64,000 bases of DNA. It comes from Alphaproteobacteria bacterium (GTDB taxonomy: Bacteria; Pseudomonadota; Alphaproteobacteria; UBA9219; RFNS01). Of this stretch, positions 22,669 through 64,000 are shown piece after piece (position 1 is the stretch's first letter; each line of letters begins with the position of its first letter). The notes under the pieces were generated by a model. It saw only the letters and a list, made by a program, of their open reading frames with translations, was not told the origin of the DNA and searched no databases. The DNA lies in NCBI GenBank assembly GCA_037200005.1, contig JBBCGY010000001.1, positions 42,416 to 106,415 of the forward strand, written 5' to 3'. The translations under genes and the position numbers were made by a program.

Positions 22669-22700
22669 AGAATATGAGTGGAATTGAGGGAGTTAATGCA

Positions 22701-27111: not shown

Positions 27112-27187
27112 GACCTTGTAGCTCAGCCGGTAGAGCATCTGACTTTTAATCAGGGGGTCGCGGGTTCGAACCCCGCCGAGGTCACCA
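27112..27187 (+). tRNA. tRNA-Lys (anticodon UUU)
   Basis: 76-nt cloverleaf folded by hand: acceptor GACCTTG/CGAGGTC, D-stem GCTC/GAGC, anticodon loop CTTTTAA, T-arm GCGGG-TTCGAAC-CCCGC, encoded CCA. Confidence 0.9.
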
Positions 27188-27220
27188 GCTATAAACGGAC
27201 TTTTAAGTCCGTTTATAGCT
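27187..27220 (+). terminator. perfect 14-bp hairpin immediately after the tRNA
   Basis: agctataaacggac-ttttaa-gtccgtttatagct. Confidence 0.4.
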
Positions 27221-27228
27221 GGTTATGA

Positions 27229-27250
27229 AGTTGGGTTCGAACCCGCGACA
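27229..27250. repeat. tRNA 3'-end-like fragment (GGGTTCGAACCCGCGAC), possible att-site remnant
   Basis: 12/12 match to the tRNA T-arm 'GGGTTCGAACCC', located 45 nt downstream of the tRNA. Confidence 0.3.
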
Positions 27251-46024: not shown

Positions 46025-46639
46025 TCAGTCAGCGCGCAAACGATAGCCGAAACGCACCTTCGCCGTCGCGTTTTCGGAACATTGCCCGGCGGCGGTGCCG
46101 ATGATCGCGGTCGGGTTGGGCGGCAAAGCGGTGATTGGGGCGTCATTGATCGAAGCCGCGGCAAGTCCGCGGGAAATTTCGCCCGGTGCTGTCGCTTTCA
46201 AGACCAGCGCGGCGCAGGCGGCAGGCGGCAGATTCAGGTAATCGACGGTGTATTGGAACGCTTCGGGCGCATCGCATCCCGCCGCGCCGGTTCCCGCCAC
46301 CGTTCCGCGCGTTACCGTCACCGCCGTGCCCCAGGGGCTGGAGATGTTATTCGCCTGCAGCATTTCGCGCGGGATGAGGGGCGGATTGATCGCCGTCAGC
46401 GTCGCCGTCAAATCGCCGGTCGCGGCGATGCAGGGCCGCTCCTGGTAATAAGTGCGGATATTCTTGTTGATAACGAGGAGTTGCTCGCCGGTCTGCTGAA
46501 GTTTTACCGAATCGCGCGTGCTGACGATCACCAGCCATACGCCGCCGAGAATTACGCCCGCGACCCCGAACACGATGGCAAGCTCGATGAGCGTCACCCC
46601 GGCGCAGAACTTTCTGGCTCTTAATCGATGCTGTTTCAT
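46025..46639 (-). CDS. type IVb prepilin-like protein (N-terminal methylation motif)
   Basis: leader MKQHRLRARKFCAG followed by 'VTLIELAIVFGVAGVILGG' hydrophobic alpha1 segment; C-terminal Cys pair. Confidence 0.7.
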   Translation of the reverse strand: MKQHRLRARKFCAGVTLIELAIVFGVAGVILGGVWLVIVSTRDSVKLQQTGEQLLVINKNIRTYYQERPCIAATGDLTATLTAINPPLIPREMLQANNISSPWGTAVTVTRGTVAGTGAAGCDAPEAFQYTVDYLNLPPAACAALVLKATAPGEISRGLAAASINDAPITALPPNPTAIIGTAAGQCSENATAKVRFGYRLRAD

Positions 46640-47304
46640 GACGGATTCAGCCTGAAGGCAAAATAAAGACGGTTGGCATTGGCGCTGGTGCAACTGGCGG
46701 CGAGCCAGGTAGGCGTAGGCGGCATAGGAGTGGCAATCGCGCCGGGAATGGCGGCGTCTCCCGTATCGACGCCGATACCGACCAAACCGACCTGATCCAT
46801 GACCCCCAACAATTTAGTGCCCAGATCGATGCATGCGGCTTGCGGCAGATTGCGCAGCATAATCGTAATGCCATAGCGGGGATTCACGTTGCCGAAGGCA
46901 TTGGCGACGGGGGAAGCGGACACGCAAATCGTACCGTCGCCGCAAATCGATCCCGCGCCGTCGGAACTCCAGGGATGGGCGAAATAGCAGGGCGCTCCCA
47001 GACCGCAAGTCTTCGGATCGGCATCGGGCGTCAATTTGGTTTCGGCGGGAAATACATCTTTCCTCGCGACCCTTTGCGTGAAAAGAATATAGTCCTCATC
47101 CGGCAAGATCGCCGCATTCGTATAAGCGTCGCGGACATTTTCCACGATCTGCTGCAATTGATCGACGGCGCGGTTGATGTTGTGATGATGGGCCACGGCG
47201 CGCGCGCCGAGCCATATGGCGCCCGCCAGCATGCCCGCCACGCCCAGCACGATCGCAAGCTCGATAAGGTTGAACCCGCGCTGTCGATGCGGCATGCGGC
47301 GCAT
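46636..47304 (-). CDS. type IVb prepilin-like protein
   Basis: leader MRRMPHRQRG then FNLIELAIVLGVAGML; paralogous architecture to neighbours ('NLPQAACIDLGTKL' vs 'NLPPAACAALVLK' vs 'NLPVDVCIALASR'). Confidence 0.7.
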   Translation of the reverse strand: MRRMPHRQRGFNLIELAIVLGVAGMLAGAIWLGARAVAHHHNINRAVDQLQQIVENVRDAYTNAAILPDEDYILFTQRVARKDVFPAETKLTPDADPKTCGLGAPCYFAHPWSSDGAGSICGDGTICVSASPVANAFGNVNPRYGITIMLRNLPQAACIDLGTKLLGVMDQVGLVGIGVDTGDAAIPGAIATPMPPTPTWLAASCTSANANRLYFAFRLNPS

Positions 47305-47325
47305 TGTCCGTTCTCCATTCCCTGA

Positions 47326-48003
47326 TTACCGCAGCATAAACGCCCATTCCAGCGTCACCAGACCGCCCGCCGCCGCATTCTGGCATTCCGTGACCGCCTG
47401 CGTCGGATTAACCGGCAGGCTGGTCCCATTCGCCCACACCGTTCCCGCCGCCGTATAGGCCGTCCCGGCAGGGCCGCCGAATAGAACCGCCCGCAGCATC
47501 ATTTTCTGATCCGGCGCGGAGATGCGCGACGCGAGCGCGATACAAACGTCAACCGGCAAATTGGCATAACGCACGCCAAAACTTGTTTCGCCCGGCGCGG
47601 CGGCGGCGGCCGTATTCAGATCCTTGTCCATCGGCTCGACGACAACCGCTCCCCAATCATTGGCGGGCGGAGTGCCGGGCACGCCGCCGATCATGTCGCT
47701 CGGAAAAGCGCCCTGGCAGCTCAATTTGGCCGTCAAATCCGCAGGATTGCAGCCGCCAATCGGGCTGTTGTCATGATAAATTCCCCGCTGGCTGGTATAA
47801 ATGCCGCGCACATTGGCGACAATTTCGAACAGCTGTTCGCCCGCCTTGTTGATGGAAGTGGAGCGGCTCACCCGGCCCGCCGCGAACATAATCCCGGCGA
47901 CGACCATTCCAGCGACGCCCAGCACGATGGCGGCCTCGACCAAAGAGAAGCCGGAGAATGAGCGGCCCCGCCTTCTGTTTTTTTCTCTCCGGCTAAAATC
48001 CAC
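47326..48003 (-). CDS. type IVb prepilin-like protein
   Basis: leader ...RSFSG then FSLVEAAIVLGVAGMV. Confidence 0.7.
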   Translation of the reverse strand: MDFSRREKNRRRGRSFSGFSLVEAAIVLGVAGMVVAGIMFAAGRVSRSTSINKAGEQLFEIVANVRGIYTSQRGIYHDNSPIGGCNPADLTAKLSCQGAFPSDMIGGVPGTPPANDWGAVVVEPMDKDLNTAAAAAPGETSFGVRYANLPVDVCIALASRISAPDQKMMLRAVLFGGPAGTAYTAAGTVWANGTSLPVNPTQAVTECQNAAAGGLVTLEWAFMLR

Positions 48004-49084
48004 TGCCGCCGCCCTTGCTCGAGTCGCTGATGACCACGGTGATATGCAGGATCGAGCTCATGGCGAAGGCGATGACGGTGCCGACCACGGCGAGGCCGAT
48101 ATTCCGCACCACCACCGACTGCGCCTTAAGCTCGTCGATCTGCTCCCTGATCCATTCCTGGGTCACTTCCTCGATCACCGAGCCGATATCGCCGCGCTCG
48201 GAGAGAATTTCCATGTCGAGCGCGACCTGCGGATCGGGGAAACCGTAATTGCCCTGGCGCAGCGCCTCGCCGAGATTCTTGCCCTGCAGCACCGCTTCGA
48301 CTGCCGACGCGATCCGCTCCTTGATCCAGGGATTGCCCTGCTGTTCCAGGATTTCCAGCGCGCGGCGCAGCGGCACCTGCGCGCCCATGAGCGCCGAAAG
48401 GCCGAGCATGAAGCCGCTGCCCTGCCAGATGCGGAACCACGACCAGGGCGGATATTTATCGAACTTCGCCCGCGTCTTGCCCCTCCAGAACGGCATCGTG
48501 ACCGAAGTGATGACGGCGAGCGTGCCGATCGACAAAAGAATGGCGATGCCCCATTTCATGATGAAATCCGACACGTCGGCGAGCGGCCCGATCGATTCCA
48601 GCACCGCTTTCGGCGCGTTCTTGCGCATATTCTGGATCAGGTTGACGCCGAACATCCACAAGACGCCAGAAATCAGGATGATCATGAAGGCGGGATAGGT
48701 GATCGCCTGCATGACGGCGGTGCGCATTTCCTTGGCGCTCTCGCCCATCATCATGATGGAACGCAGCGACTTCGCCACGGTGCCCGATTCTTCCCCGGCG
48801 CGGAGCATGTATAATTCCGCCGACGGCACCCATCCGGCCATCGCCTGCGAAAGCGAATCTCCCGCCCGGTCGCGCTGCAGCCATTCGCGCAGCGCCATCG
48901 CCGCGGGGCGATTCGGGTATTTGCCCATCTCGCTGGAATTGTACCAAAGCCGCTCCAAGGCGCGCGACAGCGCCTCGTTCATCGCCAGCATGCCCTGAAG
49001 CTTGCGATAGACGCGAAAGCGCATCTTCGTGTTGCTGCGGAATTTCCACATGGCGTAGGAGCGTGAGAACTCTGCGCTATTCAT
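47993..49084 (-). CDS. type IV pilus / T2SS inner-membrane platform protein (GspF/PilC family; R64 PilR-like)
   Basis: 363 aa, two GspF-type repeats with TM segments; start ATG forms ATGA overlap with the ATPase stop. Confidence 0.8.
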   Translation of the reverse strand: MNSAEFSRSYAMWKFRSNTKMRFRVYRKLQGMLAMNEALSRALERLWYNSSEMGKYPNRPAAMALREWLQRDRAGDSLSQAMAGWVPSAELYMLRAGEESGTVAKSLRSIMMMGESAKEMRTAVMQAITYPAFMIILISGVLWMFGVNLIQNMRKNAPKAVLESIGPLADVSDFIMKWGIAILLSIGTLAVITSVTMPFWRGKTRAKFDKYPPWSWFRIWQGSGFMLGLSALMGAQVPLRRALEILEQQGNPWIKERIASAVEAVLQGKNLGEALRQGNYGFPDPQVALDMEILSERGDIGSVIEEVTQEWIREQIDELKAQSVVVRNIGLAVVGTVIAFAMSSILHITVVISDSSKGGGSGF

Positions 49085-51009
49085 CGCCATACACCGAGGC
49101 GCTGCTCGACTTCGGCGATCTCGCGTTCGCGGGCGAGCGGCCCGACCTCGACTTCGGCGTCGGCGGGAGAAACTTCGCCGCGGCGGATTTTTTCGAGAGC
49201 GTGCCAGGCCATCGTGATGCCATTCAGCCCATGGGGCGAAAGCCAGTATTCCTCGGCCTCGATGATCTTGCCCTCCTGGAGCAGATTCATCAGCTTGATA
49301 TCGGTTTCCGCTACCTCGGCGCAAACTGTGCGCCCGCTGCGCCCCTTGAAGCATTTCGGGCAGCCGTCGGGATTGGCGACGTAAATCTGGCTCATGTCAG
49401 GCTCCTCGATCCGGTCGAGGGCGGGCTGTCCCGGATCGGCCTTCATGCGGCGCGCGATCATCAGCGCGAGGCCGGTCCGCACCCGGCGCGCGAGGTCTTC
49501 GTAATCCGGCCCGAACTGCTTGGGCGCTTCCTTGATCGGAACGCGGCAAGAGGGGCACAGGCCCTTGAGCAGCCTTTGGCAGAACATGCCGCACAGCAGA
49601 TGCGGATCATAAATCAGATAAGGCTCGATGCCGAGATCGAGCAGGCGGCGCGGCACGGCGATCGCCGAATAGACGTGCAGCGTCGTGTAAATCTGCCGCC
49701 CGGAAAGCGCCAGGCGGAAGGCGAATTTGGCGGTCTGGATGTCGCGGATTTCGCCGAGCATGACGATGTCGGGATCGAGGCGCAGGGCGCTGCGCATCAC
49801 TTCCGAAAAGCTTTTCTCGCGCTGCTCTTCCTTGACTGACGCGGACACGCCGATCTGGCTCGCGCCCATCACGCCGCCTTCCGGCGGGTCTTCGATCAGA
49901 TAGCATTTGCGGTCGAAATTGGTTTCCACCATGCGCCGGTTGAGCATCACGCGCAGCGTCGTGGTCTTGCCTTGGTTCACCGGGCCGGAAAATATCCGCA
50001 TGCCGCCGGGCAGGCTGCGCAGGAAGCGCACCGTCTTGAGCTGTTCCTGGGAAAAGCCGATCGAATCGACATCCGCCATGGCGAAATTCTCGCCGAACAG
50101 ATGCGCCGAGTCATATTGCAGGCGCATATTGAGATAGCGCCCCCCGTCCGACAGCGGCACCCACTGGCAGCGCATCGACGGCACGCCGATCGGAAGCTGG
50201 ACGGATTCCTGACCGCCGGTTCCGGCCAGCATCGCCGCCTGCGGCTCGAGCCAGTTGGCGGTCGCGCCCGACTGGCCGATCGAATGCGAATAGACGGCGG
50301 ACAGAACCTGCTCGCCTTCGCGCTGAGTCCAGGTTTCCCACAGGCGCAGCGCGCCATCGACGCGGAACTCCACCTTGGCGCGGCCGCCCGCCGCCTCGAT
50401 GTGAATGTCGTTGGCGCCCATGTCGGCGGCCTGCTGGATCATCTCGACGATCTTGCGCCTGACGGCATTGTCGTCGAGGCGAACCATCGCCGCCTGGCGC
50501 TCGGCATAGGCATAGGCCTGCTGCACGATATTCGGGGTGACGTAATGCGGCTCGTCGACTTTATAGCCTTGCCGCCGCGCCTGCAGCGCCACCGAAGTGA
50601 CGAGCGGCGAATTGCGGTGCGCGGCGCTGACCAGCCACATGCCGTTATCGAACAGCGCGCAGAAATTGCGCGACTCGGCAGTGATTTTGAGCGTGCTGCC
50701 CTCGACGGTCAGCACCAGGCCGGTGAATTTCAGCGCCCCGGACAGCGCCATCGAGCGCTCGTCAACGATCTTGATCTGCTGCTGCGCCGCAATGGCGGTT
50801 TTGGCCGCGTTATCCGCGCCCGAGGACGCCGCCTTGCCCTGCGCGGACGGCGCTTGATCGGGGGATGGCGGGGCTTCCGGCGGAGGGGACGGCGGCGCAA
50901 CGGCTCCCTTGGCCGGCGCGGTCAGCTCTCCGGACTTCGGCGCTGGTTTCGACGCCTCCGGTGCCTTATTGATAAGTTTGCGGGTGCGGTCGGCGAGATC
51001 GGACAGCAT
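49081..51009 (-). CDS. type IV pilus assembly ATPase (GspE/PilB family; R64 PilQ/TcpT/BfpD-like)
   Basis: Walker A 'GPVNQGKTTT', 'YLIEDPPE', Walker B 'DPDIVMLGEIRD', His box, tetracysteine 'CPSC...CPKC'; Pro/Ala-rich N-terminus. Confidence 0.9.
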   Translation of the reverse strand: MLSDLADRTRKLINKAPEASKPAPKSGELTAPAKGAVAPPSPPPEAPPSPDQAPSAQGKAASSGADNAAKTAIAAQQQIKIVDERSMALSGALKFTGLVLTVEGSTLKITAESRNFCALFDNGMWLVSAAHRNSPLVTSVALQARRQGYKVDEPHYVTPNIVQQAYAYAERQAAMVRLDDNAVRRKIVEMIQQAADMGANDIHIEAAGGRAKVEFRVDGALRLWETWTQREGEQVLSAVYSHSIGQSGATANWLEPQAAMLAGTGGQESVQLPIGVPSMRCQWVPLSDGGRYLNMRLQYDSAHLFGENFAMADVDSIGFSQEQLKTVRFLRSLPGGMRIFSGPVNQGKTTTLRVMLNRRMVETNFDRKCYLIEDPPEGGVMGASQIGVSASVKEEQREKSFSEVMRSALRLDPDIVMLGEIRDIQTAKFAFRLALSGRQIYTTLHVYSAIAVPRRLLDLGIEPYLIYDPHLLCGMFCQRLLKGLCPSCRVPIKEAPKQFGPDYEDLARRVRTGLALMIARRMKADPGQPALDRIEEPDMSQIYVANPDGCPKCFKGRSGRTVCAEVAETDIKLMNLLQEGKIIEAEEYWLSPHGLNGITMAWHALEKIRRGEVSPADAEVEVGPLAREREIAEVEQRLGVWR

Positions 51010-51015
51010 AATATC

Positions 51016-51855
51016 TCACGGCGCCCCGCGCCCATGGCTTAAAGCGCCGGCATTGTCGATGCGAAGGCTGTGCTCGTTTTTATCGCCCGGAGATTTAAGT
51101 TGAACCGTCGTGGCGTCGATGAGCTGGACTTCGGTGCCATCGGCGAGCTTGTCGCCGGCGCGCACATTGATCGTCTTGCCGTCCTGCGCAGAATCCAGAT
51201 CGGCGCTGTATCTTCCGCCGGCGCCGACGATCTTGTGCACTTCATAATCCGCGGGCGAAACGGCCGATGGCGTCCGGCGCGGCGCGGAAGCCGAGGCAAG
51301 CTCGGTCACCGGCACGGCCAGAGAGGCCTTTTGCATTCCCCTGGGCATTTTCGTGACGCCGGAGGGCAGCATGGCGCCGACTTCGCTCGCCATGTCGTCC
51401 CCGCCCTCGCGCTTGGCGCGAGCTTTTTCGAGATCATGCATTTTCTGCTCGAGTTCCAGCAGAAGATCGAGGCGCGCCAGCGCTGCGCGCGCCTGATTCA
51501 TGTCTTCGAGGCTGAGATCGATTTTTCCCGTCTCGAGCTTTTTCATCACGCTTTTAACCTGATCGGGAATTTCCTTGTCTTCGCCGGTCCCATCAGTCGC
51601 ACTAGCCGAAGCGGCTTTGGTTTCCTCGGTCGTCCCTACTCCCGGGCCGCCGGGAGGATGGGCGAGATTGATTCCGCCGCCGGGCTGTCCCGCCTGCGCG
51701 GGGATCGATGGCGCGGCCGATGATGCGGCGCCCGTCATGGCAGCGGTATGGGCGACGGCGAGATCGGTTACGGTCGTTTGGGCAAAAGCCATGGAAGACG
51801 CGGCGCCGAGGGCCAGCACAAAGGCCGGAAACCAAGATCTAAAGGCAATTCTCAT
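51016..51855 (-). CDS. periplasmic pilus-assembly accessory protein (PilP-like), signal peptide
   Basis: signal peptide MRIAFRSWFPAFVLALGAASSMAFA; operon position between the ATPase and PilO-like genes. Confidence 0.4.
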   Translation of the reverse strand: MRIAFRSWFPAFVLALGAASSMAFAQTTVTDLAVAHTAAMTGAASSAAPSIPAQAGQPGGGINLAHPPGGPGVGTTEETKAASASATDGTGEDKEIPDQVKSVMKKLETGKIDLSLEDMNQARAALARLDLLLELEQKMHDLEKARAKREGGDDMASEVGAMLPSGVTKMPRGMQKASLAVPVTELASASAPRRTPSAVSPADYEVHKIVGAGGRYSADLDSAQDGKTINVRAGDKLADGTEVQLIDATTVQLKSPGDKNEHSLRIDNAGALSHGRGAP

Positions 51856-52129
51856 CCTACACTCCTTCGACCAGCCAGGGATCGTCCGATCGGTCAAACT
51901 TCTGATAAAGCCCCCAGGATCGGAGGCCCCATACCTAATCTGGGAAGTCGGTTCATCATCGGCGAATAGGGTTAAGTTCCCGTAAACATAGGCTTTATGA
52001 ACCTCGTGCCATTAACGAATGGTTATCGCCCTGCGGCAAGGCGTCAGTTTTGAAATCGGGCATGGAGGGGGATTGGCCTTCATGTCGGCCTAGACGCGGC
52101 GCGGCGCGGCGGCAGGGCGACAAAAAGCG

Positions 52130-53386
52130 TTATTTTCTGTTTTCGTAGATCACGCCGCTGATCTGCCAGCTTCCGCTCTGCGAGACGATGCTGTTGATGA
52201 TAACGCCGGGAACGCCGCCGAAATATTGCGGCAATTCGCCTGGTAAATCGGTAACCTTCAGCGTGAATCCGCGCTTGATCCAGGGCGTAGGCGGCGGATT
52301 CCAGTCTTCCGGCCGCACATTTTCCGGTTTCGGCGGCGGCGGATCGTCAGGCAGGCGCGAAATCGTGCCGTTCCAGTTCTGCGCCAGATAGCGTTTGGTG
52401 ATTTCCGCCGGATCGATCAAATCCTGGGGGCCGCGATTTTTCAGGCCCTCGATCGGCACGCCGCGCGAAGCGTTCGACCCCGATGGATCGATGGAGGCAT
52501 CGGCAAGGGGCTGAGTGTAGCCGACGATGCGGGTCCATGACAGCGACAGGCCGCCCTTCGCGCAACTTAATGTGCTAAGATTCCATCCCAGCCTCGCCTG
52601 CGGCACCTTGTCCAGCGCGACGCGGCACGCCTCTATCAATTCCAGAGGATGAGGCTCATCCTCCCAGAACCGCTTCGGCGGCGGATACGCGATCTGAATC
52701 GGACCGCCGAGACCCGCCGCTTTCATTTCGATCGCACGCTTCTGGGCCTCGATCCTGATCAATTCCCTTTGCGCTTCCTGCGCTTTTTCTTCCTGGTATT
52801 GGTAATACCAGAATCCCGCGATACCCAATACGACGACGAGCGCCGTGACGGCCACGCCGATAAGGATCGCGCGCGGTATCTTGACCGGCTGCAAGGGGCA
52901 GTCGCCGCGATTTTGCAGCACGAAGGGAAGCGCGACCGTTTCCGAAGCGGGAATCGACCATGCTTCAGGAGCATAGATGCGCTGCAGGCCGCCAAGCGTG
53001 ACTTCCTGGATAAGACGGTCGCGGGCGCTGGCGTCATCGAGATATATCTGGTCACCGTCCGGCGCGATCAAATCGTCGCGCACCACGATGACCACGATGC
53101 CTTCGCTTAACTTGAAGGCGCCCGCCCATGAACCCGGCAGCCGGTTGGCAAGCGACGCGGCCAAGGTCGCCATGCCGAGCTTGTGGCCGGATTGCTGAAG
53201 CCCCAGACCGAACTGGGCGACGCGGCCGCCCTTGACGCCGGGACGCACCGCAAAAAAGTCGGCGTGCTGGCCCGGCTGGCGCGCCGCCTCTTTAGCCGCT
53301 TGCGCGACACGGCCGCTCGGCGAAGGCTGCCAATAGAGGCCGACCGCGTATTTGCGCCGTCCGACTGTCGCGACGCCAGATCCCAT
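52130..53386 (-). CDS. bitopic membrane pilus-assembly protein (R64 PilO-like)
   Basis: 418 aa with a single central TM 'AILIGVAVTALVVVLGIAGFWYY'; size and position match PilO of IncI thin-pilus operons. Confidence 0.45.
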   Translation of the reverse strand: MGSGVATVGRRKYAVGLYWQPSPSGRVAQAAKEAARQPGQHADFFAVRPGVKGGRVAQFGLGLQQSGHKLGMATLAASLANRLPGSWAGAFKLSEGIVVIVVRDDLIAPDGDQIYLDDASARDRLIQEVTLGGLQRIYAPEAWSIPASETVALPFVLQNRGDCPLQPVKIPRAILIGVAVTALVVVLGIAGFWYYQYQEEKAQEAQRELIRIEAQKRAIEMKAAGLGGPIQIAYPPPKRFWEDEPHPLELIEACRVALDKVPQARLGWNLSTLSCAKGGLSLSWTRIVGYTQPLADASIDPSGSNASRGVPIEGLKNRGPQDLIDPAEITKRYLAQNWNGTISRLPDDPPPPKPENVRPEDWNPPPTPWIKRGFTLKVTDLPGELPQYFGGVPGVIINSIVSQSGSWQISGVIYENRK

Positions 53387-53388
53387 TA

Positions 53389-53651
53389 GGGTCCAACCTT
53401 AATTAGAATGGGGTTTCGCGCAGGCGAAAAAGCCGCCCGGCTACGAAAAGACAGAAGCAGGTATCGGCGACTACCTGCGAGGTCTTTGAGAACGCCGGTC
53501 GGCTTTTTCGCCGCGCCCCTTGGGTATGCAAAAGAAGGCCGATCTGCGTTGTCGGCTTCGCTCGCCGTAGATTGACTACGGCTTCGCTCGCCTCCTAGCA
53601 TCTCAGCCTTCTTTTGCATACGAAACTCCCATTCTAATTAAGGTTGGACCC
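53389..53651. mobile_element. 263-bp MITE-like element with ~31-bp terminal inverted repeats and TA target-site duplication (Tc1/IS630-like)
   Basis: TIR-L GGGTCCAACCTTAATTAGAATGGGGTTTCG (53389-) vs TIR-R CGAAACTCCCATTCTAATTAAGGTTGGACCC (-53651), 30/31 complementary; flanked by TA on both sides; internal sub-palindromes; no ORF. Confidence 0.6.
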
Positions 53652-55207: not shown

Positions 55208-55270
55208 CATTCTTTCCATCCAAGGCTAATTGAGGCGCGAACCTTATGACTTAATTGTTAACATTGGCTT

Positions 55271-56713: not shown

Positions 56714-56762
56714 AGGAGGGATAAAACCGATTCGTGATTCATACTACGTTATAGTCAGTCCG

Positions 56763-56962
56763 CTTGAAAACCCGAAAAAACTCCGTCGCGCCTACCCCGT
56801 CATTAAGGAGGAAACCCATCGCGAGCGCGACATAGATTTTTCGGATTTTTAGGCGGACGTCATCCACATCACTTGAAAACCCAAAAAATATTCTGTCGCA
56901 TCCGCATGGCTTTACTGCTTGGGGGAGAACGATGGCGACGGAATATTTTTTGGGTTTTCAAG
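56763..56962. promoter_or_regulatory. three copies of a ~28-nt motif CTTGAAAACCC(A/G)AAAAA...TC(C/T)GTCGC (two direct, one inverted) in the 400-bp gap upstream of the pil genes
   Basis: 56763-56790 and 56872-56900 are direct copies; 56936-56962 is the reverse complement of copy 2 (1 mismatch). Confidence 0.4.
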
Positions 56963-57115
56963 CCAAGTAACTATAGGAAATAGCCGGAAAAGCGCCATGA
57001 GAAAACAACAATTTTCGACTTTTCCCCAGAAGCAGGCGTGACATGGGTGCAACGGACGGTGAACAACAAAGATTAACGGATAGATAAGCGGGAAACAAAC
57101 CGCTCGATAGCGGCT

Positions 57116-57427
57116 TTATGAAGCGGTTTCGTCGCTCTCTTCCTGCGCCCGGGCATCTGCGGCGCCATAATCGGTCATGCGCCGCCGCAAAAGACGGATT
57201 GTTGCCGGACGCTCTTGGCCAAGAACCCAGCAGCGCAGGGCGCGCAGCGCCGACTCGAAGCTCAAGCCGCGCTGCTCGACGGCCCAGAAGATCAAAATCG
57301 TGATGACGGTCAGCGTCAAGGTCCAAAGCTGGATATACATCAAGCAGGCCAGAACCACGAAAAAAAGCCGCGCGTCAAAGATAAAGAAGCGGGCGATTTT
57401 CTGACTATTGCGCCAATGATCATCCAT
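57116..57427 (-). CDS. IcmT/TraK-like small inner-membrane protein (type IVB secretion/conjugation)
   Basis: 103 aa; N-terminal 'DDHWRNSQKIARFFIFDARLFFVVLACLMYIQLWT' resembles the IcmT HWR...RFF...D.R...F pattern; RBS 'ggag' upstream. Confidence 0.45.
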   Translation of the reverse strand: MDDHWRNSQKIARFFIFDARLFFVVLACLMYIQLWTLTLTVITILIFWAVEQRGLSFESALRALRCWVLGQERPATIRLLRRRMTDYGAADARAQEESDETAS

Positions 57428-57513
57428 AATTCAGACTCCAGATGTCGGTGATCGGAAAGGGCAACGCGCGCCCTATCCGCCGGTTTCGGATAACTGGCAA
57501 CCGGTATTCGACT

Positions 57514-58743
57514 TTATACGTCCGTCGTTACGGTATCGTTAACGGCTTGCGTCGCCAAAGGCTCGAAATTCTGGTCTTCCCGTTCGTCGCCGGAGAAGCC
57601 CTTGGTAAGCAGCAGATACCAGCGGCGATCGATCAGCCCCGCCTTGAACGCCGATGTCGCCGATTGTTCCATGGTCTTGCCGTAGCGCACGAGCAAACGC
57701 TGGGCCTCGCTGGTCCAGCGCTCGATCGGCATATCAAGCAGAATTTCGCGGACATTCTCGTCAAAGATCATGAATTCGCGCAATCCCATGCGGCCGCCGC
57801 CGACTTTAGGCACGAGCGCCTGCGTGACGATCATGCGCAGCGTTTCCATCAGGGCGAAAGCGCGCTCGGAACGCTCGGAGGGCTCAAACACGCTGACCAT
57901 GCGTCGAATGGTGGCCGCCACCCCGGTCGTATGGGCCGTGGAATAGACCGCGTGGCCGGTTTGCCCTGCCTCAATGGAGGCCGAGACCGTTTCGCGATCG
58001 CGCGATTCGCCGACCAGGATAATGTTGGGCTTGCGGCGCAGCGCGTTGCGCACCCCGGCCGCGAAATTAGGCAAATGCTTTGGGATTTCCGATTGCGAAA
58101 CCAGCGACCGCTCGCCGACGATCGAATCGTACACATATTCGATCGGGGCTTCATAGGTCAGCATCTTGCCGCAGCCCTGAGCCCGCTCGATCAGCATCCG
58201 GTTGCCCGCGGCAAGCAATGTCGATTTGCCGCTGCCGGTCGGTCCCGTCACCAGGATCAGCCCCTGGCGCGGCGCCCAATTATCGATGATTTTTTCCTCG
58301 ATCCCCAGTTCGTGCATCGTCGGGGGAAGATTGGGCAGCGACCGCATGGTGATCTGCACCCCGTCCCGCCCTCTGCTCAGCATGGCCGTGATGTTGACGC
58401 GAAAACGGTAACGCGTGTTGCGATCGGGCCTAACCTCGTAGGACAAATCGAGATCGACGCCCGACGCAAGCTTGGCGATAGCGTCCTGGCCGTAAATTTT
58501 GGCCAGGACATTGGCCATATCCGCCGAATCGATCGATCGCCTGGTTATCGGAAACAGGACGCCGTCGACTTCGATATAAACCGGGCGGTCGGTTTGAATG
58601 CTGACGTCGGTGGTGCGCCGCTCGACGCACCACATCAGCAGGCCGTCGACATGCTCTTCGCGAATGCGCAAAGGCTCATCGGTCCAGGTTCCAAGCTCTT
58701 CGCTTTTGCGCCTGGCATCCGCTAGCGTAGCGTCGACTGCCAC
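57514..58743 (-). CDS. DotB/TraJ-family secretion ATPase (PilT-like hexameric ATPase of T4BSS)
   Basis: Walker A 'GPTGSGKST', Asp box 'YEAPIEY', Walker B 'PNIILVGESRD', His box 'GHAVYSTAHT'; GTG start. Confidence 0.85.
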   Translation of the reverse strand: MAVDATLADARRKSEELGTWTDEPLRIREEHVDGLLMWCVERRTTDVSIQTDRPVYIEVDGVLFPITRRSIDSADMANVLAKIYGQDAIAKLASGVDLDLSYEVRPDRNTRYRFRVNITAMLSRGRDGVQITMRSLPNLPPTMHELGIEEKIIDNWAPRQGLILVTGPTGSGKSTLLAAGNRMLIERAQGCGKMLTYEAPIEYVYDSIVGERSLVSQSEIPKHLPNFAAGVRNALRRKPNIILVGESRDRETVSASIEAGQTGHAVYSTAHTTGVAATIRRMVSVFEPSERSERAFALMETLRMIVTQALVPKVGGGRMGLREFMIFDENVREILLDMPIERWTSEAQRLLVRYGKTMEQSATSAFKAGLIDRRWYLLLTKGFSGDEREDQNFEPLATQAVNDTVTTDV

Positions 58744-59549
58744 TGTTCGCTCCGCGGAATAAGCGTGGATTGGCCGGTGATGGTAACGCCCCGGTCGCCG
58801 ATGCGCATTTCGGCGCCTCCGCCCGTGATGCCGCGATCCTCGTGAATCGCGAAGGGCGGAGAAATCATCCCCTGCGCCAGCAATTCACGGTAATGCACCA
58901 TGCCGACGAAATCGCTCGTCATGCGATCGAGATCGGCCTCGAAAGTATCGTCCGCCTGAATCACGCCGGCGTCCCACCCTTCCTTGACCCATTTGCGCCA
59001 ATCGGCGCGCTCTTCCTTGGTCTTGGGCACCAGGAGGCCCGGCGGCGGCTCCACTTTGCCCCAATCGCGCTCCAGATACAGGCGCCAGTCGCGCGAGGCC
59101 GTGACGATGCGGGCGATGCGATTGATGCGGATAATCCGGTCGGCAACGGCAGCCTTTTGACCGCCGCCGGTCACGATCACGGCGCGCTGGGCGTCCGAGA
59201 CGATCGGCGGCTCGATCAAAAGCCCCGAAGGAGCGTTAATGAGCAGCCTTTTGAAATCGAAAGTTTTGCTGAGGGTCGCTTCCTGTTCGGCAAGACGGCG
59301 CTGGATTTCAAAAGTGCGGTGGGCAAGGCCGCCGCGAGCGCCGTATGAAAGGGCCGCTTCGCGCAGCGCGTCATGACGGATTTGAAGCCCCATATTCTCG
59401 CTGGGCTTGGCGTTGACGCCTTCCGTCTGTTCCTGCAGCTGCCACAGATCGGGAGGCGGTTCGAGCGGCCCGACTGGCGTGCTGTCGGCCCACGCCGGCA
59501 TTGCCGCCAACAACAGCAGTCCGATCACGATAGCGGAAAGCCTGCGCAT
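58722..59549 (-). CDS. DotC/TraI-like lipoprotein (assignment by synteny and size)
   Basis: signal/lipoprotein-like N-terminus MRRLSAIVIGLLLLAAMPAWA; lies between DotD-like and DotB genes, as in Legionella dotDCB and R64 traHIJ. Confidence 0.45.
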   Translation of the reverse strand: MRRLSAIVIGLLLLAAMPAWADSTPVGPLEPPPDLWQLQEQTEGVNAKPSENMGLQIRHDALREAALSYGARGGLAHRTFEIQRRLAEQEATLSKTFDFKRLLINAPSGLLIEPPIVSDAQRAVIVTGGGQKAAVADRIIRINRIARIVTASRDWRLYLERDWGKVEPPPGLLVPKTKEERADWRKWVKEGWDAGVIQADDTFEADLDRMTSDFVGMVHYRELLAQGMISPPFAIHEDRGITGGGAEMRIGDRGVTITGQSTLIPRSEQWQSTLR

Positions 59550-59550
59550 T

Positions 59551-60072
59551 TCAGATTTTACCGTCGGTTGGAGCATAACGCAATTGCACCGCGCCGGCCT
59601 TGGCATCGACCGCGACATCGGCCCGGTTGCCCAGCTGCAGCCCGATATCGCGCAAGATATCGATCAGCGGCCGCTCGTAAACATCGACCGCGACCGTAAG
59701 GGGGACGGGCGTAGGCATACCCGCCGTCCGATAGGCGTAACCGGCCTTGGCCGCCAGAGTCTGCACCAACTGCTCCGCCGGTCCGTTCCAGGTTATGGTC
59801 ACGGGCTGCGAGAGGGCGTGCGGCGCGCCCATGAAATCTTCCATCGGCGGCAGCGGATTGCGATATTGCTCGATCCCAGCGACGGTATTGAGCGCTTTAG
59901 CCGCCTTTTCCGAAGCCTGGGCAATACGAAAAGCAACCGGATCGTTTTCAGCGACGAGAGGAGACACCGTTGGATTCGGCTCCTGACATGCCGCGAGCGG
60001 CATCAGCAGGATGAGAAATAAAGCGCCCGTGAAAGCGCCGGCGCAAGTAAGTGTAAATTTGGGCATGAACAT
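59551..60072 (-). CDS. DotD/TraH-like outer-membrane lipoprotein
   Basis: lipobox LMPLAAC; C-terminal 'VTITWNGPAEQLVQTLAAKAGYAYRTAG.PTPVPLTVAVDVYERPLIDILRDIGLQLGNRADVAVDAKAGAVQLRY' resembles the DotD N0-like domain. Confidence 0.55.
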   Translation of the reverse strand: MFMPKFTLTCAGAFTGALFLILLMPLAACQEPNPTVSPLVAENDPVAFRIAQASEKAAKALNTVAGIEQYRNPLPPMEDFMGAPHALSQPVTITWNGPAEQLVQTLAAKAGYAYRTAGMPTPVPLTVAVDVYERPLIDILRDIGLQLGNRADVAVDAKAGAVQLRYAPTDGKI

Positions 60073-60217
60073 CGATCCCTGTCGATATCGGAAGTCAAGG
60101 GGCGATTCTGTTTTAAGCACAAGCACAGCCAAAAACCAAGCCCTAAACCGACATAGAGCGCGATCATTCCTCAGTGAAGTGTGTCTGCGCGTCCATGGGG
60201 ATGATCGCGCTCTAGCT

Positions 60218-60517
60218 CTAAGTCCTGAAGCGCATGAAGAACATCGCGTAGCCGAACAGCGCTCCGGCAAGAAGCAGAAGCAGAAGGCCGTTGAGCCACA
60301 CGCCGTTAATAAGAAAATAAAGCCCGAGCGCCGCGATCACGGCGGACGCTATGCCGTAAATCACCGTCGCATTCGGCATGGCGCCCTGCTTGGGCGGCGG
60401 GCTGGCCGGCCCCGACGGCACATAGGGAGAAACCGTCTGCCCGTTTCCCGGGGCCTGCAACGATTTGCCGCCGCCTATGGCGGGAACGGCGGGCGGCTTC
60501 TCTGAATCACGGGCCAT
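60218..60517 (-). CDS. small membrane protein (Pro-rich N-terminus, 2 TM)
   Basis: 99-aa ORF in the tra-like operon. Confidence 0.4.
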   Translation of the reverse strand: MARDSEKPPAVPAIGGGKSLQAPGNGQTVSPYVPSGPASPPPKQGAMPNATVIYGIASAVIAALGLYFLINGVWLNGLLLLLLAGALFGYAMFFMRFRT

Positions 60518-60549
60518 GGATCACCTCTTCCCCGCATTGCCGATGATCG

Positions 60550-61536
60550 TCATGGCGACAGATCCGACAGGATGGTGGCGACCTTGTCAGGCTTCCCGAG
60601 CACGACTTTGATCTTGCCGTCCTTGCCGCGATAAACAATGTAGGGCGTCGCGGAAATTTTCCATTCCTTGGTCATCTCCATGGTCGCCCGCACCGCCGTA
60701 ATATCGGCGGTGGGCGGCACGCCGGCAAGAGCGTTGGCATCGCCATCCACGAACTGGCTCCAAGCCTTGAAAGGCTCGGCCACGCGCAGGAATATTGCAG
60801 ACTGGCGCTCGTCTTCGCTGTCAGGCGCGCCGATGGGCAGTAATTTGACGCGCAGCTCTCCCTTGTCGACATGATCCTTGAGTTCTTTCCATGTCGCCTT
60901 GCAGAAGGGGCAATGGGGCTCGACCAGCATTACCACGAGCGGCTTGTCGCCTTGGCCCATGGTCACGCCCACCGCTCCCTGGAAATCCTGATAGAGTCGC
61001 TCGCCGGGCGACAGGGACACGAGTTCCGGCGGTCCACTTTTCGACGCAGGCTGCGGGTCACTGCCGCCACCGCCGCCCACCTTTTGAATTTCTTCCTGTT
61101 TTTCTGCCGCCGAAGTCAGCAGCGCCTTGATCTGGGGTATCTGCATGCCGACCGTATTCATTTGCTCGGCGGTAATATTGGTGCCCTCGGCCGAGAACAT
61201 CGCGCCGAAAAGCAATGACTGGCGATCGGGAGCGATATAGAAAAACTGAAGCTGCCCGTCTTTCTGCAGCATGAAGCCGGGCATGCCGGAACGCTCGCCC
61301 ATATAATAAAGCTCGGCGCCTTGCTGCAGCATCGTACGCAACACCGGTATCCTCTTGATATCCACATCGGTCGCAGGCATCTGCTGCGCCTTGGCGATCT
61401 CCGCCGGATCGGCCTTGAGCAGGGCGCCCACCGGTATTTGCGAGGATTTCTGGGCCGCCGCTGGAAACGCAAAAAGCGCAACCGCCAGAGTCAAAGGAAA
61501 AAGCCGCTTTGTCAGGGATTTCATCGTCATGGTCAT
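60550..61536 (-). CDS. periplasmic thiol:disulfide interchange protein, DsbC/TrbB-like
   Basis: signal peptide; thioredoxin active site 'CPFC'; N-terminal dimerisation-like domain. Confidence 0.75.
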   Translation of the reverse strand: MTMTMKSLTKRLFPLTLAVALFAFPAAAQKSSQIPVGALLKADPAEIAKAQQMPATDVDIKRIPVLRTMLQQGAELYYMGERSGMPGFMLQKDGQLQFFYIAPDRQSLLFGAMFSAEGTNITAEQMNTVGMQIPQIKALLTSAAEKQEEIQKVGGGGGSDPQPASKSGPPELVSLSPGERLYQDFQGAVGVTMGQGDKPLVVMLVEPHCPFCKATWKELKDHVDKGELRVKLLPIGAPDSEDERQSAIFLRVAEPFKAWSQFVDGDANALAGVPPTADITAVRATMEMTKEWKISATPYIVYRGKDGKIKVVLGKPDKVATILSDLSP

Positions 61537-62021
61537 TCGTCCACCTTGGCTATTTTAACGTTCCGATTCTCGGCTCCCGCCGCTGATTTCGGCGGCGGAT
61601 TTGCGGCGTATAACTCGTGCGCCACCAGCCCCTTATGCTCCATCACATCGATGACTTTGCCAGCATATCGCCCGCCGCGCCAGGGGGTAGCGGAATGATA
61701 ACGCGCGATACCGCCGCGCAAATAACCCGCTTCATCGATTTTCTGCCGCAGAATCCAGGCGGAAACATAAACATTGACGCAGCCGTTATCGCGCACCCAT
61801 TGCCGCGCGGTGCCGCCATCCACGCCCCACAGCCGCGCCAATTGCGGCATCCATACCGTGTTGACTTGCATCGGGCCTAAATCGTAGCTGCCATTGGTAT
61901 TATGGACTTCCTGGCCCACGCGGCCGCCCTCGACATGCATCATGGCAATCATCACCGCCGGCGGTACATGATAGGTTTGAGCGGCGAGCAGCAGGCATGC
62001 TGCGATCATTTGCGAAGTCAT
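61533..62021 (-). CDS. lytic transglycosylase (SLT domain; VirB1/PilT(R64)/IagB-like)
   Basis: 'MHVEGG' catalytic Glu region, 'DLGPMQVN', 'ARYHS' motifs; signal peptide. Confidence 0.8.
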   Translation of the reverse strand: MTSQMIAACLLLAAQTYHVPPAVMIAMMHVEGGRVGQEVHNTNGSYDLGPMQVNTVWMPQLARLWGVDGGTARQWVRDNGCVNVYVSAWILRQKIDEAGYLRGGIARYHSATPWRGGRYAGKVIDVMEHKGLVAHELYAANPPPKSAAGAENRNVKIAKVDE

Positions 62022-62025
62022 GGCG

Positions 62026-62907
62026 TTAGCTCCATCCTTCTTCTTCCAGCTTGGCGGCAGACGGCACCTCTAGATAAGTGCCCAGCGTCGCAAGCAGCGC
62101 CATGCGCTGGTTGAATTCTTGCCATACTTGGGCCATCGGCACAACATTGCCGTGCTTGGCGAAATAGGCCGCGCGATCATCAGGATTCATGTAAAGCAGC
62201 CGGTCCGCCTCGGCATAATGGCTATCGGCATAAATCTGCCCCGCGGATTTCAGAACCGCCCAGCACAGCAGCCGCCATTGCTCCGGGCTGGCCCCGGCCG
62301 GCGCCAGCGAACGCGTAATCTGATCGGCGGTTTTGACGAGCCGCTCCGCCACCTCGGCAAGCAAACCGTGCTCGCCGCGCCCGAAAGAATATTGCGAGAT
62401 GGCGCCAACCACGGGCACCAGCGTCTCCAGCATTTTGGCGCGAAAAGTCGCCACTTGATTGGGGACAGGCTCGATGCCGCCGGTCACAAGGTTCTTGAAT
62501 TTTTCCGGCAGCGCGCCAATGACCGCGAGAATCGGCTCGGCCGCGCCCGCATCAAGCATATGTCCCGTTGCCCGGTAATTGGCCGCGACCAATTGACAGG
62601 CGGCGCCGATAGCGCCCCAGCGCAGAGCGGCGGGGGCGGCCGCGCCCTCCATTTTATCCGCCATCTGGCGCGCTAAATTGGCGGCATTTTCGATCAGAAG
62701 CGGAAATGCCTCAAAATTCGCTTTACGGGTTGCGCCGGCGCCGGCCGCGTTGCGGTCTTGCTGGCCGGCTTCCAGCAACGCCGTCAATAAGGGCGTTCCG
62801 ACAAGACGCAGCGCCGCCGCCAGCGTTTGCATGCGCTGACCGGCGTCAATTTCGCTCTGTGCTCCCGCACTATCCATGAATAAAATCCAACCGGCATCGC
62901 CAGCCAT
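62026..62907 (-). CDS. hypothetical cytoplasmic protein in tra-like operon
   Basis: 293-aa Ala/Leu-rich ORF, no motifs. Confidence 0.4.
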   Translation of the reverse strand: MAGDAGWILFMDSAGAQSEIDAGQRMQTLAAALRLVGTPLLTALLEAGQQDRNAAGAGATRKANFEAFPLLIENAANLARQMADKMEGAAAPAALRWGAIGAACQLVAANYRATGHMLDAGAAEPILAVIGALPEKFKNLVTGGIEPVPNQVATFRAKMLETLVPVVGAISQYSFGRGEHGLLAEVAERLVKTADQITRSLAPAGASPEQWRLLCWAVLKSAGQIYADSHYAEADRLLYMNPDDRAAYFAKHGNVVPMAQVWQEFNQRMALLATLGTYLEVPSAAKLEEEGWS

Positions 62908-62996
62908 CCTGGGATGAACACGCCATAGCTTTCACGAAAACGGTTAACACTTGCCTTATGCCATGACAAGAAGTCATTAAGAAAACTAAAAGCGCC

Positions 62997-63971
62997 TTAC
63001 ATGCCCTTGGATTTCGACGCGGGGCCGGGGACGGTATATTTCACCCGCCGCGGGCCGGACTCGTTTTCGACCTTGATCGGACTGGCGACGCCCTCCGTAA
63101 AGTCCTTGCTGATACTGTCAACGCCGATGACAAACTGATTGAAAGTCGCCCGATAGGTTTCGTCCCGCTGTTCGGCTATGCTTTTAAGCTGGTTGCATTG
63201 CGCCAAAACGGCGGTTTTGACTGAGTCGGGACCGGTATCGGCCTCGAAGCTGTGATTGTTTTTGCAAAAAACAATATCGCGGTAATGCTGCAAGAGGGCT
63301 TGGCTCACATATGTTCTCGGATCGGGAGTGCCATCGCCGTCGATATCTTCACCCACCACCGCGTTACCGTTGCTGTCATAAGCCTGGAATATCTTCTGGT
63401 CATAGCCCGACTTGACCATATTATAGCCGATACGGATGCCATTCTCGCCGATGGAATTGGCTTTCATCAGCGGGTCGCCGACGGCGAGCTTCGTGCCGTC
63501 GGCAAGCTTGCCGTCGGGATCGGGAGCGGTGCGCCGCGCAATTTCATCGTAACAGGTGCGAATAAGCGTGCTGACCTTATCGAGCGTGCTGAAATTCTTC
63601 ATGATCACATGCACATTTTTCGGATCCATCGCCCTATCGCCGGTGATCGTATTCGGCTGGATCGCTTGAAGCTCGATATTTTGGCAAAAACGCACGGCCG
63701 ACACATACAGTTTCTGCTTGTCCGTCATGGAGTCCCACGCGCCCTTGGCCGAACCGGTCCACTTCGTGCAGGGAGAGTTGGGAATGGTGCTATCATAAGC
63801 ATCGGGACTATCGAGGCAGGTCATCTGCTCCGCGCTCGGCTGAACCATAACCAAATTGGCGAGAATGGTCGAAGGCTTGACGAAAGCGTGGGCAAAAGCA
63901 GGGTCCTCGAAGCAGGGATTGGCGGCGCTTCCCATGGCATTCCACCACTTCATGCCGAAATCGCCCTTCAA
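62997..63971 (-). CDS. hypothetical protein (324 aa)
   Basis: ORF with several Cys residues; no recognisable domain. Confidence 0.4.
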   Translation of the reverse strand: MKGDFGMKWWNAMGSAANPCFEDPAFAHAFVKPSTILANLVMVQPSAEQMTCLDSPDAYDSTIPNSPCTKWTGSAKGAWDSMTDKQKLYVSAVRFCQNIELQAIQPNTITGDRAMDPKNVHVIMKNFSTLDKVSTLIRTCYDEIARRTAPDPDGKLADGTKLAVGDPLMKANSIGENGIRIGYNMVKSGYDQKIFQAYDSNGNAVVGEDIDGDGTPDPRTYVSQALLQHYRDIVFCKNNHSFEADTGPDSVKTAVLAQCNQLKSIAEQRDETYRATFNQFVIGVDSISKDFTEGVASPIKVENESGPRRVKYTVPGPASKSKGM

Positions 63972-64000
63972 AAACTGTCCGTTCTTGCATAGCCTCTGCA

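Follow-up and report, generated by a model that had tools for sequence, protein, structure and literature searches.

The 64,000-nucleotide stretch of alphaproteobacterial DNA analyzed here (the window; positions 42,416 to 106,415 of contig JBBCGY010000001.1, assembly GCA_037200005.1) ends in a long run of genes for Dot/Icm-type secretion proteins and a type IVb pilus. We consider it likely that this cluster encodes a Dot/Icm-type type IVB secretion system (T4BSS) joined to a type IVb pilus operon, that it is resident and vertically inherited rather than a recent integrative and conjugative element (ICE), and that it serves contact-dependent delivery, a function which we infer from the known roles of the gene families and which would concern proteins. 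The cluster looks like a domesticated, lineage-wide chromosomal Dot/Icm-type T4BSS that retains a type IVb pilus. An earlier note on the window had described a chromosomal mating-pair formation type I (MPF-I) module, with the pilus genes directly after DotD-DotC-DotB-IcmT and beside core genes such as nhaA. This arrangement was confirmed, and profile searches found the genes it had listed (transglycosylase, DsbC-like, DotD, DotC, DotB, IcmT, TcpQ, secretin, PilO, PilQ, PilR and prepilins) at the places it had given.

Gene content of the supercluster

The genes form a single chromosomal supercluster in one orientation, and its downstream 18 kb lie in the window; about 37 kb of it were seen in the present genome and about 45 kb are inferred from syntenic relatives. 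Minus-strand genes run without a break from the window end to position 46025, and their junctions are short or overlapping (open reading frame [ORF] listing and translation, 44-64 kb). The DNA past position 64,000 was read on a 1.83-Mb contig of GCA_037975565.1, which was reached through an exact-sequence match of g2 and then through u1. On this contig, JBBCBH010010965.1, the window corresponds to about 808,597-872,596 of the reverse strand. The stretch of this contig beyond the window is termed L085, and the window and L085 together make up 84 kb. The remaining T4BSS components had been suspected to lie beyond position 64,000, and IcmB/DotO, DotM and the coupling protein DotL were indeed found there, on the same contig and strand and colinear with the window genes. 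All of the approximately 25 genes seen have uninterrupted ORFs, as judged from their translations, and the Walker A motifs are kept in IcmB, DotL, DotB and PilQ.

The gene order in the present genome is IcmB/DotO, DotM, a 171-aa gene, DotL, a family 4 glycosyltransferase (GT4), Wzy_C, u1, u2-u6 and g2, followed by the lytic transglycosylase, Dsb, a 99-aa gene, DotD, DotC, DotB and IcmT, and finally PilL, PilN, PilO, the PilP-like gene, PilQ, PilR and three prepilins, after which comes nhaA. The features are as follows; (-) is the minus strand of the window.

L085 180-3164, same strand as the cluster: IcmB/DotO, VirB4-class ATPase, 994 aa (28% identity to R64 TraU, E 4e-104; Walker A)
L085, between IcmB and the 171-aa gene: DotM, 388 aa (DotM_C domain)
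L085 5140-7521: DotL-like coupling protein, 793 aa (450 bits with Legionella pneumophila DotL, 6sz9)
L085 7626-9832, between the coupling protein and the secreted unknowns: GT4 glycosyltransferase and Wzy_C protein (O-antigen ligase/O-oligosaccharyltransferase-like)
L085 10001-19886 (window-equivalent ~62997-72900), between Wzy_C and g2: six secreted proteins, u1-u6 (no Pfam match)
62997..64000 (-): C-terminal part of u6, fifth and last of the tandem paralogs u2-u6 (full gene 517 aa, continuing to ~64550)
62026..62907 (-): g2, 293 aa, which travels with T4BSS genes (no family or PDB match)
61533..62021 (-): lytic transglycosylase, TrbN/IagB-like (NF010463 TrbN 87 bits, IagB 41 bits)
60550..61536 (-): periplasmic DsbC/DsbG-like thiol:disulfide isomerase (DsbG NF008657 90 bits)
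60218..60517 (-): small membrane protein, 99 aa (hydrophobic C-terminal half, read directly)
59551..60072 (-): DotD/TraH lipoprotein, 173 aa (PF16816 94 bits; NF033882 82 bits)
58722..59549 (-): DotC/TraI lipoprotein, 275 aa (PF16932 243 bits)
57514..58743 (-): DotB hexameric ATPase, 409 aa (TIGR02524 405 bits versus 229 with the plasmid TraJ model; Walker A GPTGSGKS)
57116..57427 (-): IcmT/TraK small inner-membrane protein, 103 aa (NF038220 81 bits, cutoff 40)
56745..56980 (-): near-perfect nested palindrome/hairpin of 236 nt in the 402-bp icmT-pilL spacer (nested inverted repeats)
55271..56713 (-): PilL-like protein, 480 aa (C-terminal TcpQ domain PF10671 57 bits; STN weak, 22 bits)
53651..55207 (-): PilN-family type IVb secretin lipoprotein (TIGR02520 240 bits, cutoff 288; PF00263; Secretin_N_2)
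52130..53386 (-): PilO, PilO2-type accessory protein (PF06864, PAP_PilO, 89 bits, full length)
51016..51855 (-): PilP-like periplasmic protein, 293 aa as reported (assigned by position only; signal peptide)
49081..51009 (-): PilQ-type extension ATPase, 642 aa (PF00437, T2SSE, 180 bits; GspE and PilB families; Walker A GPVNQGKT)
47993..49090 (-): PilR-type platform protein, ~365 aa (PF00482, T2SSF, 90 bits in two stretches; GspF 75 bits)
47326..48003 (-): type IVb prepilin 1 (leader ...RSFSG/FSLVE; Bundlin 26 bits; weak PilS)
46636..47304 (-): type IVb prepilin 2 (leader MRRMPHRQRG/FNLIE; N_methyl; TIGR02532)
46025..46639 (-): type IVb prepilin 3, with which the cluster ends (leader ...KFCAG/VTLIE; PilS N-terminal domain 24 bits; N_methyl)

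The Dot assignments are supported by structures as well as by profiles. DotC and DotD matched their L. pneumophila counterparts (6x62 at E 9e-41 for DotC; 6x62 and 3ady at E 2e-14 for DotD), and the best plasmid homologs of DotC are about 40% identical. The DotB score of 405 bits lies below the equivalog cutoff of TIGR02524, which is 463. The IcmT gene also has a precomputed match to PF28014 (IcmT_2). DotC, DotD and IcmT thus pass profile searches and further T4BSS components do exist upstream, so that the identification of the module stands on both counts. The lytic transglycosylase is 40-42% identical to transglycosylases of alphaproteobacterial MPF-I plasmids, the Dsb-like protein matched Thioredoxin_2 (27 bits) and, weakly, DsbC_N in Pfam, and the 99-aa protein has a 47%-identical counterpart at the same position in L003, a 267-kb metagenome contig.

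Upstream of the window, homologs of the present IcmB are named IcmB by their sources, and the L003 orthologs of the coupling protein/DotM pair scored 385 bits with NF041447 and 180 bits with NF033890. The DotL-like protein aligns to L. pneumophila DotL over residues 14-599 only, its C-terminal ~190 aa having no PDB match. In Legionella, the C-terminal region of DotL binds the IcmS/IcmW/LvgA adaptors. The product of the 171-aa gene between DotM and DotL (p171) was considered as a TrbB or adaptor homolog and gave no PDB or family match. Before IcmB, a 220-aa gene, of which the end portion only was seen, stops 170 bp short of it.

The pilus block contains a lipoprotein secretin, TcpQ/PilL, PilO2, an extension ATPase and a platform protein, which is the set of a type IVb pilus of the PilN/BfpB-secretin class. 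The PilL-like protein has a signal peptide, Pro/Ala-rich linkers, an STN-like domain and the C-terminal TcpQ domain. PilN carries a lipobox-like AVAAC, read directly, and is equally close to BfpB and plasmid PilN, with about 26% identity in each case. The PilP-like gene named in the earlier note is present; its identity is positional, with no Pfam or NCBIfam profile match, and its slot between PilO and the ATPase is the one found in the type IVb pilus operons of R64, Thalassospira and Escherichia coli. The three prepilins are paralogs of about 200 aa with 26-28% identity (1 versus 2, 28%; 3 versus 2, 26%), and they show the type IVb features of a long basic leader, Gly at -1, Glu at +5, a mature length of ~190 aa and a C-terminal Cys pair. 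No large PilV is present in the pilus block, which has the three ~200-aa pilins only. A 77-aa ORF in the pilN-pilO gap (53386-53619) has a GC content at third codon positions (GC3) of 0.51, is uncalled in the record and is probably not a gene. The gene directly after prepilin 3 is nhaA (PF06965, 421 bits).

Between the coupling protein and the transglycosylase lies a lineage-specific block of GT4, Wzy_C, the p244-like u1, the u family and g2, whose order is conserved in relatives. The GT4 and Wzy_C pair is kept in L003, L004, L005, L010 and L029, and the two may glycosylate the pilins or the u proteins. The Cys/Pro-rich u1 (624 aa) matches the small proteins p244 of L003 and p226 of L004 with its C-terminal 190 aa. 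The five tandem paralogs u2-u6 share 31-71% identity, invariant Cys and Arg columns and the motif VNMQSKNCRIHT. The first of two "hypothetical" genes in the earlier note, ORF 62997-63971, proved to be the C-terminal 324 aa of the 517-aa u6, which runs off the window end (record gene call L001 covers it in full length); the second is g2. No match to the u family was found in Pfam or NCBIfam (ten members searched) or in the PDB (family profile). It is rare, with four matches in an index of 5.8 billion proteins and 23 representatives among 1.84 billion clusters, and there are five copies here and two or three in relatives. The possibility that it is IcmX/TraW-like is unsupported, as the family hidden Markov model did not match the R64 Tra proteins, TraW/IcmX included. 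The orthologs of g2 adjoin the transglycosylase, IcmB or DotD in L003, L010, L056, L059, L066, L073 and L087. AlphaFold2 models were too poor for a fold search, both for u6 (4-sequence alignment; predicted local distance difference test score [pLDDT] 36) and for g2, whose low-confidence model from a single sequence is all-helical (pLDDT 46).

Relation to Dot/Icm systems, MPF-I plasmids and the host lineage

The Dot/Icm system of Legionella and Coxiella belongs to MacSyFinder class pT4SSi. The present cluster shares with it the DotD, DotC, DotB, IcmT, DotO/IcmB, DotM and DotL families, to which the relatives add DotI, DotH, DotG, a DotE-like protein and DotN. The genes dotD, dotC and dotB adjoin each other in Legionella region I too, the icmL-K-E-(G)-C-(D)-J-B order of region II recurs in the relatives, and the system is chromosomal with no relaxase seen in the present 84 kb. 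However, the host is an alphaproteobacterium and not a member of the Legionellales, and the complete type IVb pilus operon, lytic transglycosylase and DsbC-like gene, all embedded here, are not part of the Legionella system. The DNA seen showed no IcmS, IcmW, IcmQ, IcmR, DotU, IcmF, DotK, DotA or IcmX, the last ~190 aa of DotL do not align, and GT4, Wzy_C, u1-u6 and g2 are extra.

The layout had also been said to mirror that of the IncI1 plasmid R64. This holds for the internal orders, since TraH-I-J-K correspond to DotD-C-B-IcmT and pilL, N, O, P, Q, R and S follow each other in the same way in both. Both also combine an MPF-I type IV secretion system (T4SS) with a type IVb pilus and have a transglycosylase (PilT) and a DsbC-like protein (TrbB). 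It does not hold for the order of the blocks, which is reversed: R64 has pil, rci, traEFG and traHIJK, whereas the window has dot and then pil, without rci or traEFG between them. Moreover, identity to R64 is 28-32%, the NikAB relaxase, oriT, Rci with its shufflon, the large PilV adhesin, PilM and PilU are absent from the DNA seen, and the present system is chromosomal with host-like composition.

The closest plasmid homologs (DotC 40%, IcmB 39% and DotL 40% identity) are on plasmids of Thalassospira and Roseomonas. The Thalassospira xiamenensis plasmid NZ_CP004389.1 has DotD-DotC-DotB, with TcpQ, PilN, PilO2, an unnamed gene, the ATPase, T2SSF and a pilin following on the strand of these genes, and Roseomonas mucosa pTT14-3 has DotI-H-G, DotO, DotD-C-B-IcmT, the transglycosylase and the coupling protein in this order, with intervening genes. 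Because the dot-then-pil layout is also found on an alphaproteobacterial MPF-I plasmid, that of Thalassospira, it is probably ancestral. These plasmids differ from the present cluster in their interleaved replication and partition genes and in the prepilin peptidase and second ATPase of the pil block; they lack the GT4/Wzy_C/u-family/g2 block, and overall identity to them is 24-42%.

The ATPases of the cluster are Legionella-like. For DotB, the identity to the L. pneumophila protein (6geb) is 46%, gapless over 370 aa (358 bits), compared with 33% for a second DotB structure (6gef), 34-39% for the Roseomonas/Thalassospira plasmids and 30% for R64 TraJ. The scores against Legionella proteins in the PDB are phmmer bits and those against plasmids and R64 are BLAST bits, scales that are only roughly comparable: DotL scored 450 bits with L. 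pneumophila, 339-396 with the Roseomonas/Thalassospira plasmids and 226 with R64 TrbC, and DotC scored 143, 118-149 and 97 (R64 TraI), respectively. The pilus proteins are 24-28% identical to any plasmid homolog. In the predicted system, ATPases and gene order of the Legionella type are therefore found together with accessories of the kind used in conjugation, namely the type IVb pilus, transglycosylase and DsbC-like protein.

The cluster is not confined to the present genome. L003 is syntenic gene for gene, from IcmB, DotM, p170, DotL, GT4, Wzy_C, p244 and three u paralogs to a g2-like gene, transglycosylase, Dsb, the small gene, DotD, DotC, DotB, IcmT, PilL and PilN. A scan of the IcmB C-terminus against one genome per species (GTDB representatives) found relatives in 181 species-representative genomes. 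The best 80 of the 181 matches (64-93% identity) come without exception from metagenome-assembled genomes (MAGs) of a single alphaproteobacterial group, whose records carry the names Alphaproteobacteria, Rhodospirillaceae/Rhodospirillales, Micavibrio or "Bdellovibrionales"; NCBI taxonomy places Micavibrio under the last of these. Across 81 loci, IcmB is 57-88% identical, which indicates purifying selection. Upstream of IcmB, L005 has two DotI genes, DotH (PF12293, 251 bits), DotG (NF033900, 160 bits), a 422-aa gene, a TraQ/DotE-like gene, a 143-aa gene and IcmJ/DotN; this DotI-to-DotN order recurs in at least 20 loci. The DotN-like gene before IcmB in relatives scored 92.6 bits with NF038221, below the cutoff of 100. 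The order from DotI to IcmB is that of icmL-K-E-G-C-D-J-B in Legionella and traM-U in R64.

In more distant relatives, the genes are arranged differently. In L059 and L066, dotD-C-B-icmT are convergent on icmB with no pil genes beside them. In L056 (OZ251979.1, a complete 1.93-Mb chromosome), the T4BSS genes are scattered over the genome, and icmB stands apart with a g2-like gene and the transglycosylase in a three-gene islet (8027-12421) flanked by hisS, topoisomerase IB and asmA on one side and by NAD-glutamate dehydrogenase (gdh) and coaE on the other. In L004, a GT4-Wzy_C-p226-u-u block begins beside fhs and yggS.

The gene table of Micavibrio aeruginosavorus ARL-13 contains GMV_383 "icmO" of 2583 bp with hypothetical neighbors of 582 and 1215 bp (PMC3189940, supplementary file 4). 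The sizes of this trio (2583/582/1215 bp) are those of DotL, p171 and DotM. The genes adjoin dnaA-dnaN-recF-gyrB-argS and show low expression in both phases (PMC3189940); the text of the same 2011 genome paper states that no T4SS is present, despite icmO in its own table (PMC3189940). A pT4SSi was reported in one sentence for seven marine Micavibrionales MAGs by use of MacSyFinder (Needham et al. 2022, PMC9418006). This is a system of the same kind under the same lineage labels, given as a count only, without a gene map or pilus linkage. Our literature search of the searchable library found no paper on the architecture, pilus linkage or role of such a system.

Pilus linkage, chromosomal residence and integrity

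Several points weigh against a resident T4BSS that works together with its pilus. No prepilin peptidase was found in the cluster, as two A24 peptidases gave no match to the window and L085 at E <= 1, and this enzyme must be supplied from elsewhere. No homolog of R64 TraY (DotA), TraW (IcmX) or TraX (IcmV) was found in the 84 kb, and DotI through DotN were seen in relatives only, outside the DNA read for the present genome. No effector, translocation signal or adaptor (IcmS, IcmW or LvgA) was identified for the cluster, and the lineage assignment is based on the record labels of the IcmB relatives. A relaxase may lie farther upstream or elsewhere, 84 kb of the genome having been read. Finally, the pil and dot blocks are not adjacent in L059 and L066, and pilus and T4BSS are possibly transcribed separately: the co-transcription of icmT and pilL is doubtful because their 402-bp spacer holds the 236-nt strong hairpin.

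The last two points lead to the possibility that pilus operon and T4BSS are neighbors without a functional link, the pilus serving adhesion, aggregation or motility and the adjacency being a relic of a plasmid ancestor. We regard this as unlikely, although it is the strongest of the alternatives. The hairpin in the spacer folds at -100 kcal/mol (z -8.7), dotD-C-B-icmT stand without adjacent pil genes in L059 and L066, Bfp- and CFA/III-like operons share the internal order of the pil genes, and type IVb pili work alone in many bacteria. However, the icmT-pilL junction is kept in 5/5 close loci, namely the window, L003, L087, L088 and L089, with a PilL homolog directly after icmT in each of the latter four; a metagenome scan with DotB gave three close loci, which suffices for the junction itself and not for its spread. 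In addition, both blocks are on one strand with one composition, and the transglycosylase and Dsb genes, which both machines need, are located on the dot side. IncI plasmids use the two machines jointly, as is established for the thin pilus and T4SS of R64.

The hairpin itself is missing from the same spacer in the four relatives, and its motif CTTGAAAACCCRAAAAA occurs three times in it and nowhere else in the 84 kb. It could be a terminator, an operator or other regulatory element, or an insertion resembling a miniature inverted-repeat transposable element. In a promoter and terminator scan of 45.5-64 kb, the counts equaled the shuffled expectation, and an Rfam scan found tRNA only.

It might also be supposed that the cluster is an integrated MPF-I conjugative element that transfers its own DNA and whose relaxase, oriT and integrase lie outside the DNA seen. 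The earlier note had left the choice between an ICE and a domesticated T4BSS. The gene set (DotD/C/B, IcmT, transglycosylase, DsbC-like protein as TrbB, TrbC/DotL coupling protein and type IVb pilus) is that of the IncI plasmids, an alphaproteobacterial plasmid has the same dot-then-pil order, and the window does contain a tyrosine integrase with a tRNA-Lys. This integrase, however, lies in a separate low-GC island across 19 kb of housekeeping genes from the pilus genes; the integrase/tRNA-Lys site was considered as the border of a T4BSS element and bounds this different island. A search for attachment (att) sites, which had been proposed, failed to turn up a repeat of the tRNA-Lys region, either within the window or over the 20 kb beyond, R64 NikA/NikB gave no tblastn match in the 84 kb at E <= 0.01, and R64 Rci had no counterpart there beyond a weak match to the unrelated island integrase. 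No relaxase, integrase or att repeat is thus associated with the cluster in these 84 kb, its upstream border being outside the DNA seen.

The comparison of GC and codon usage with the core, also proposed earlier, showed that the composition of the cluster is indistinguishable from it. GC and GC3 are 0.627 and 0.746 for the pil genes, 0.604 and 0.717 for the dot genes in the window, 0.624 and 0.767 for the upstream dot genes, and 0.611 and 0.749 for the adjacent core genes; the codon-usage correlation (r) to the core is 0.93-0.97 for the cluster versus 0.78 for the tRNA-Lys island. The downstream flank consists of the housekeeping genes nhaA, pepN, upp and rsmB. The relatives' genes are split among housekeeping genes, which a self-transmissible element would not tolerate, and identity to plasmid proteins is as low as 24-42%. 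An ICE is therefore improbable in our view. Considering the core-like composition, the lack of an associated att repeat or relaxase, the separate island and the scattering in relatives, the data point to an old, vertically inherited chromosomal system belonging to a lineage of uncultured Alphaproteobacteria, and of the two choices offered earlier the domesticated one is upheld.

That the cluster is the decaying, non-functional remnant of a once-complete T4BSS which lost essential parts (DotA/TraY, IcmX/TraW, IcmV/TraX and prepilin peptidase, none of them found in the 84 kb) is very improbable, since the genes seen are all intact with conserved ATPase motifs, IcmB is under purifying selection across the 81 loci, and the absent genes may sit elsewhere, as in the scattered relatives and in Legionella, whose system is split over two regions.

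Possible role and neighboring island

For a domesticated T4BSS with its pilus, the known roles of the gene families suggest the following mechanism. The lytic transglycosylase would open the peptidoglycan, and the Dsb enzyme would introduce disulfide bonds into the pilins and the secreted, Cys-containing u proteins. DotC, DotD, DotH and DotG would build the envelope-spanning outer-membrane core complex, DotO and DotB would energize the channel, and DotL, DotM and DotN would recruit and select substrates. PilQ, acting on PilR, would extend the pilins through the PilN secretin with the assistance of PilL, PilO and PilP. The type IVb pilus would then bring and hold the target cell, just as mating pairs are held together by the thin pilus of IncI plasmids, and proteins (DNA less likely) would be delivered into the contacted cell.

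The cultured member of Micavibrio is an obligate predator of bacteria. It is conceivable, although we think it rather doubtful, that the Dot/Icm machine and pilus form the contact-dependent attack apparatus of Micavibrio-like epibiotic predators, in which effectors would pass through the T4BSS into bacterial prey held fast by the pilus. The u family, with 3-5 divergent copies per genome, found almost nowhere else and placed after GT4/Wzy_C, would then supply prey-recognition or delivered factors. If this is true, a Legionella-type T4BSS is used against bacteria, and the system has survived as an intermediate stage between conjugative MPF-I systems with a pilus and the effector translocator of Legionellales.

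In the literature, effector translocators of the Dot/Icm type count as characteristic of Legionellales and of a few related Gammaproteobacteria that dwell within eukaryotic cells, and reviews place effector-type T4BSSs in Legionellales, Piscirickettsia and Fangia (PMC11338181). The present cluster is a complete-looking, host-adapted Dot/Icm-type system that is conserved across a group of small-genome Alphaproteobacteria labelled Micavibrio. Because it has retained genes typical of conjugative MPF-I elements, those for the type IVb pilus, the transglycosylase and Dsb, it bears on the conversion of conjugation machines into protein injectors. It is also a testable candidate for how epibiotic predators, or possibly protist symbionts, engage target cells, and with it comes a small orphan family of secreted proteins, encoded as tandem paralogs and linked to the system.

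At the other end of the window lies the low-GC island (1-27187; GC 0.525 versus 0.61, GC3 0.58), whose far border is beyond the window start and whose near end consists of the tyrosine integrase (25691-27031) beside tRNA-Lys (27112-27187). A terminator-like hairpin (27184-27223) comes right after the tRNA, and an inverted copy of 17 nt of its T-arm is found at 27233-27249 (matching 27157-27173). The island encodes a 1793-aa RHS protein (14821-20202), behind which comes a protein with Sel1 repeats; a further RHS fragment and a second Sel1 protein occupy 21475-23489. Also present are a Fic protein (7159-8319) and a type I restriction-modification system with hsdM (2714-3892) and hsdS (4377-5696). 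The hsdR of this system is in three consecutive ORFs (8504-9565, 9540-10163 and 10133-11680), which jointly carry the HSDR_N, SWI2/SNF2 and C-terminal domains, and the split gene is a frameshifted pseudogene or an assembly error.

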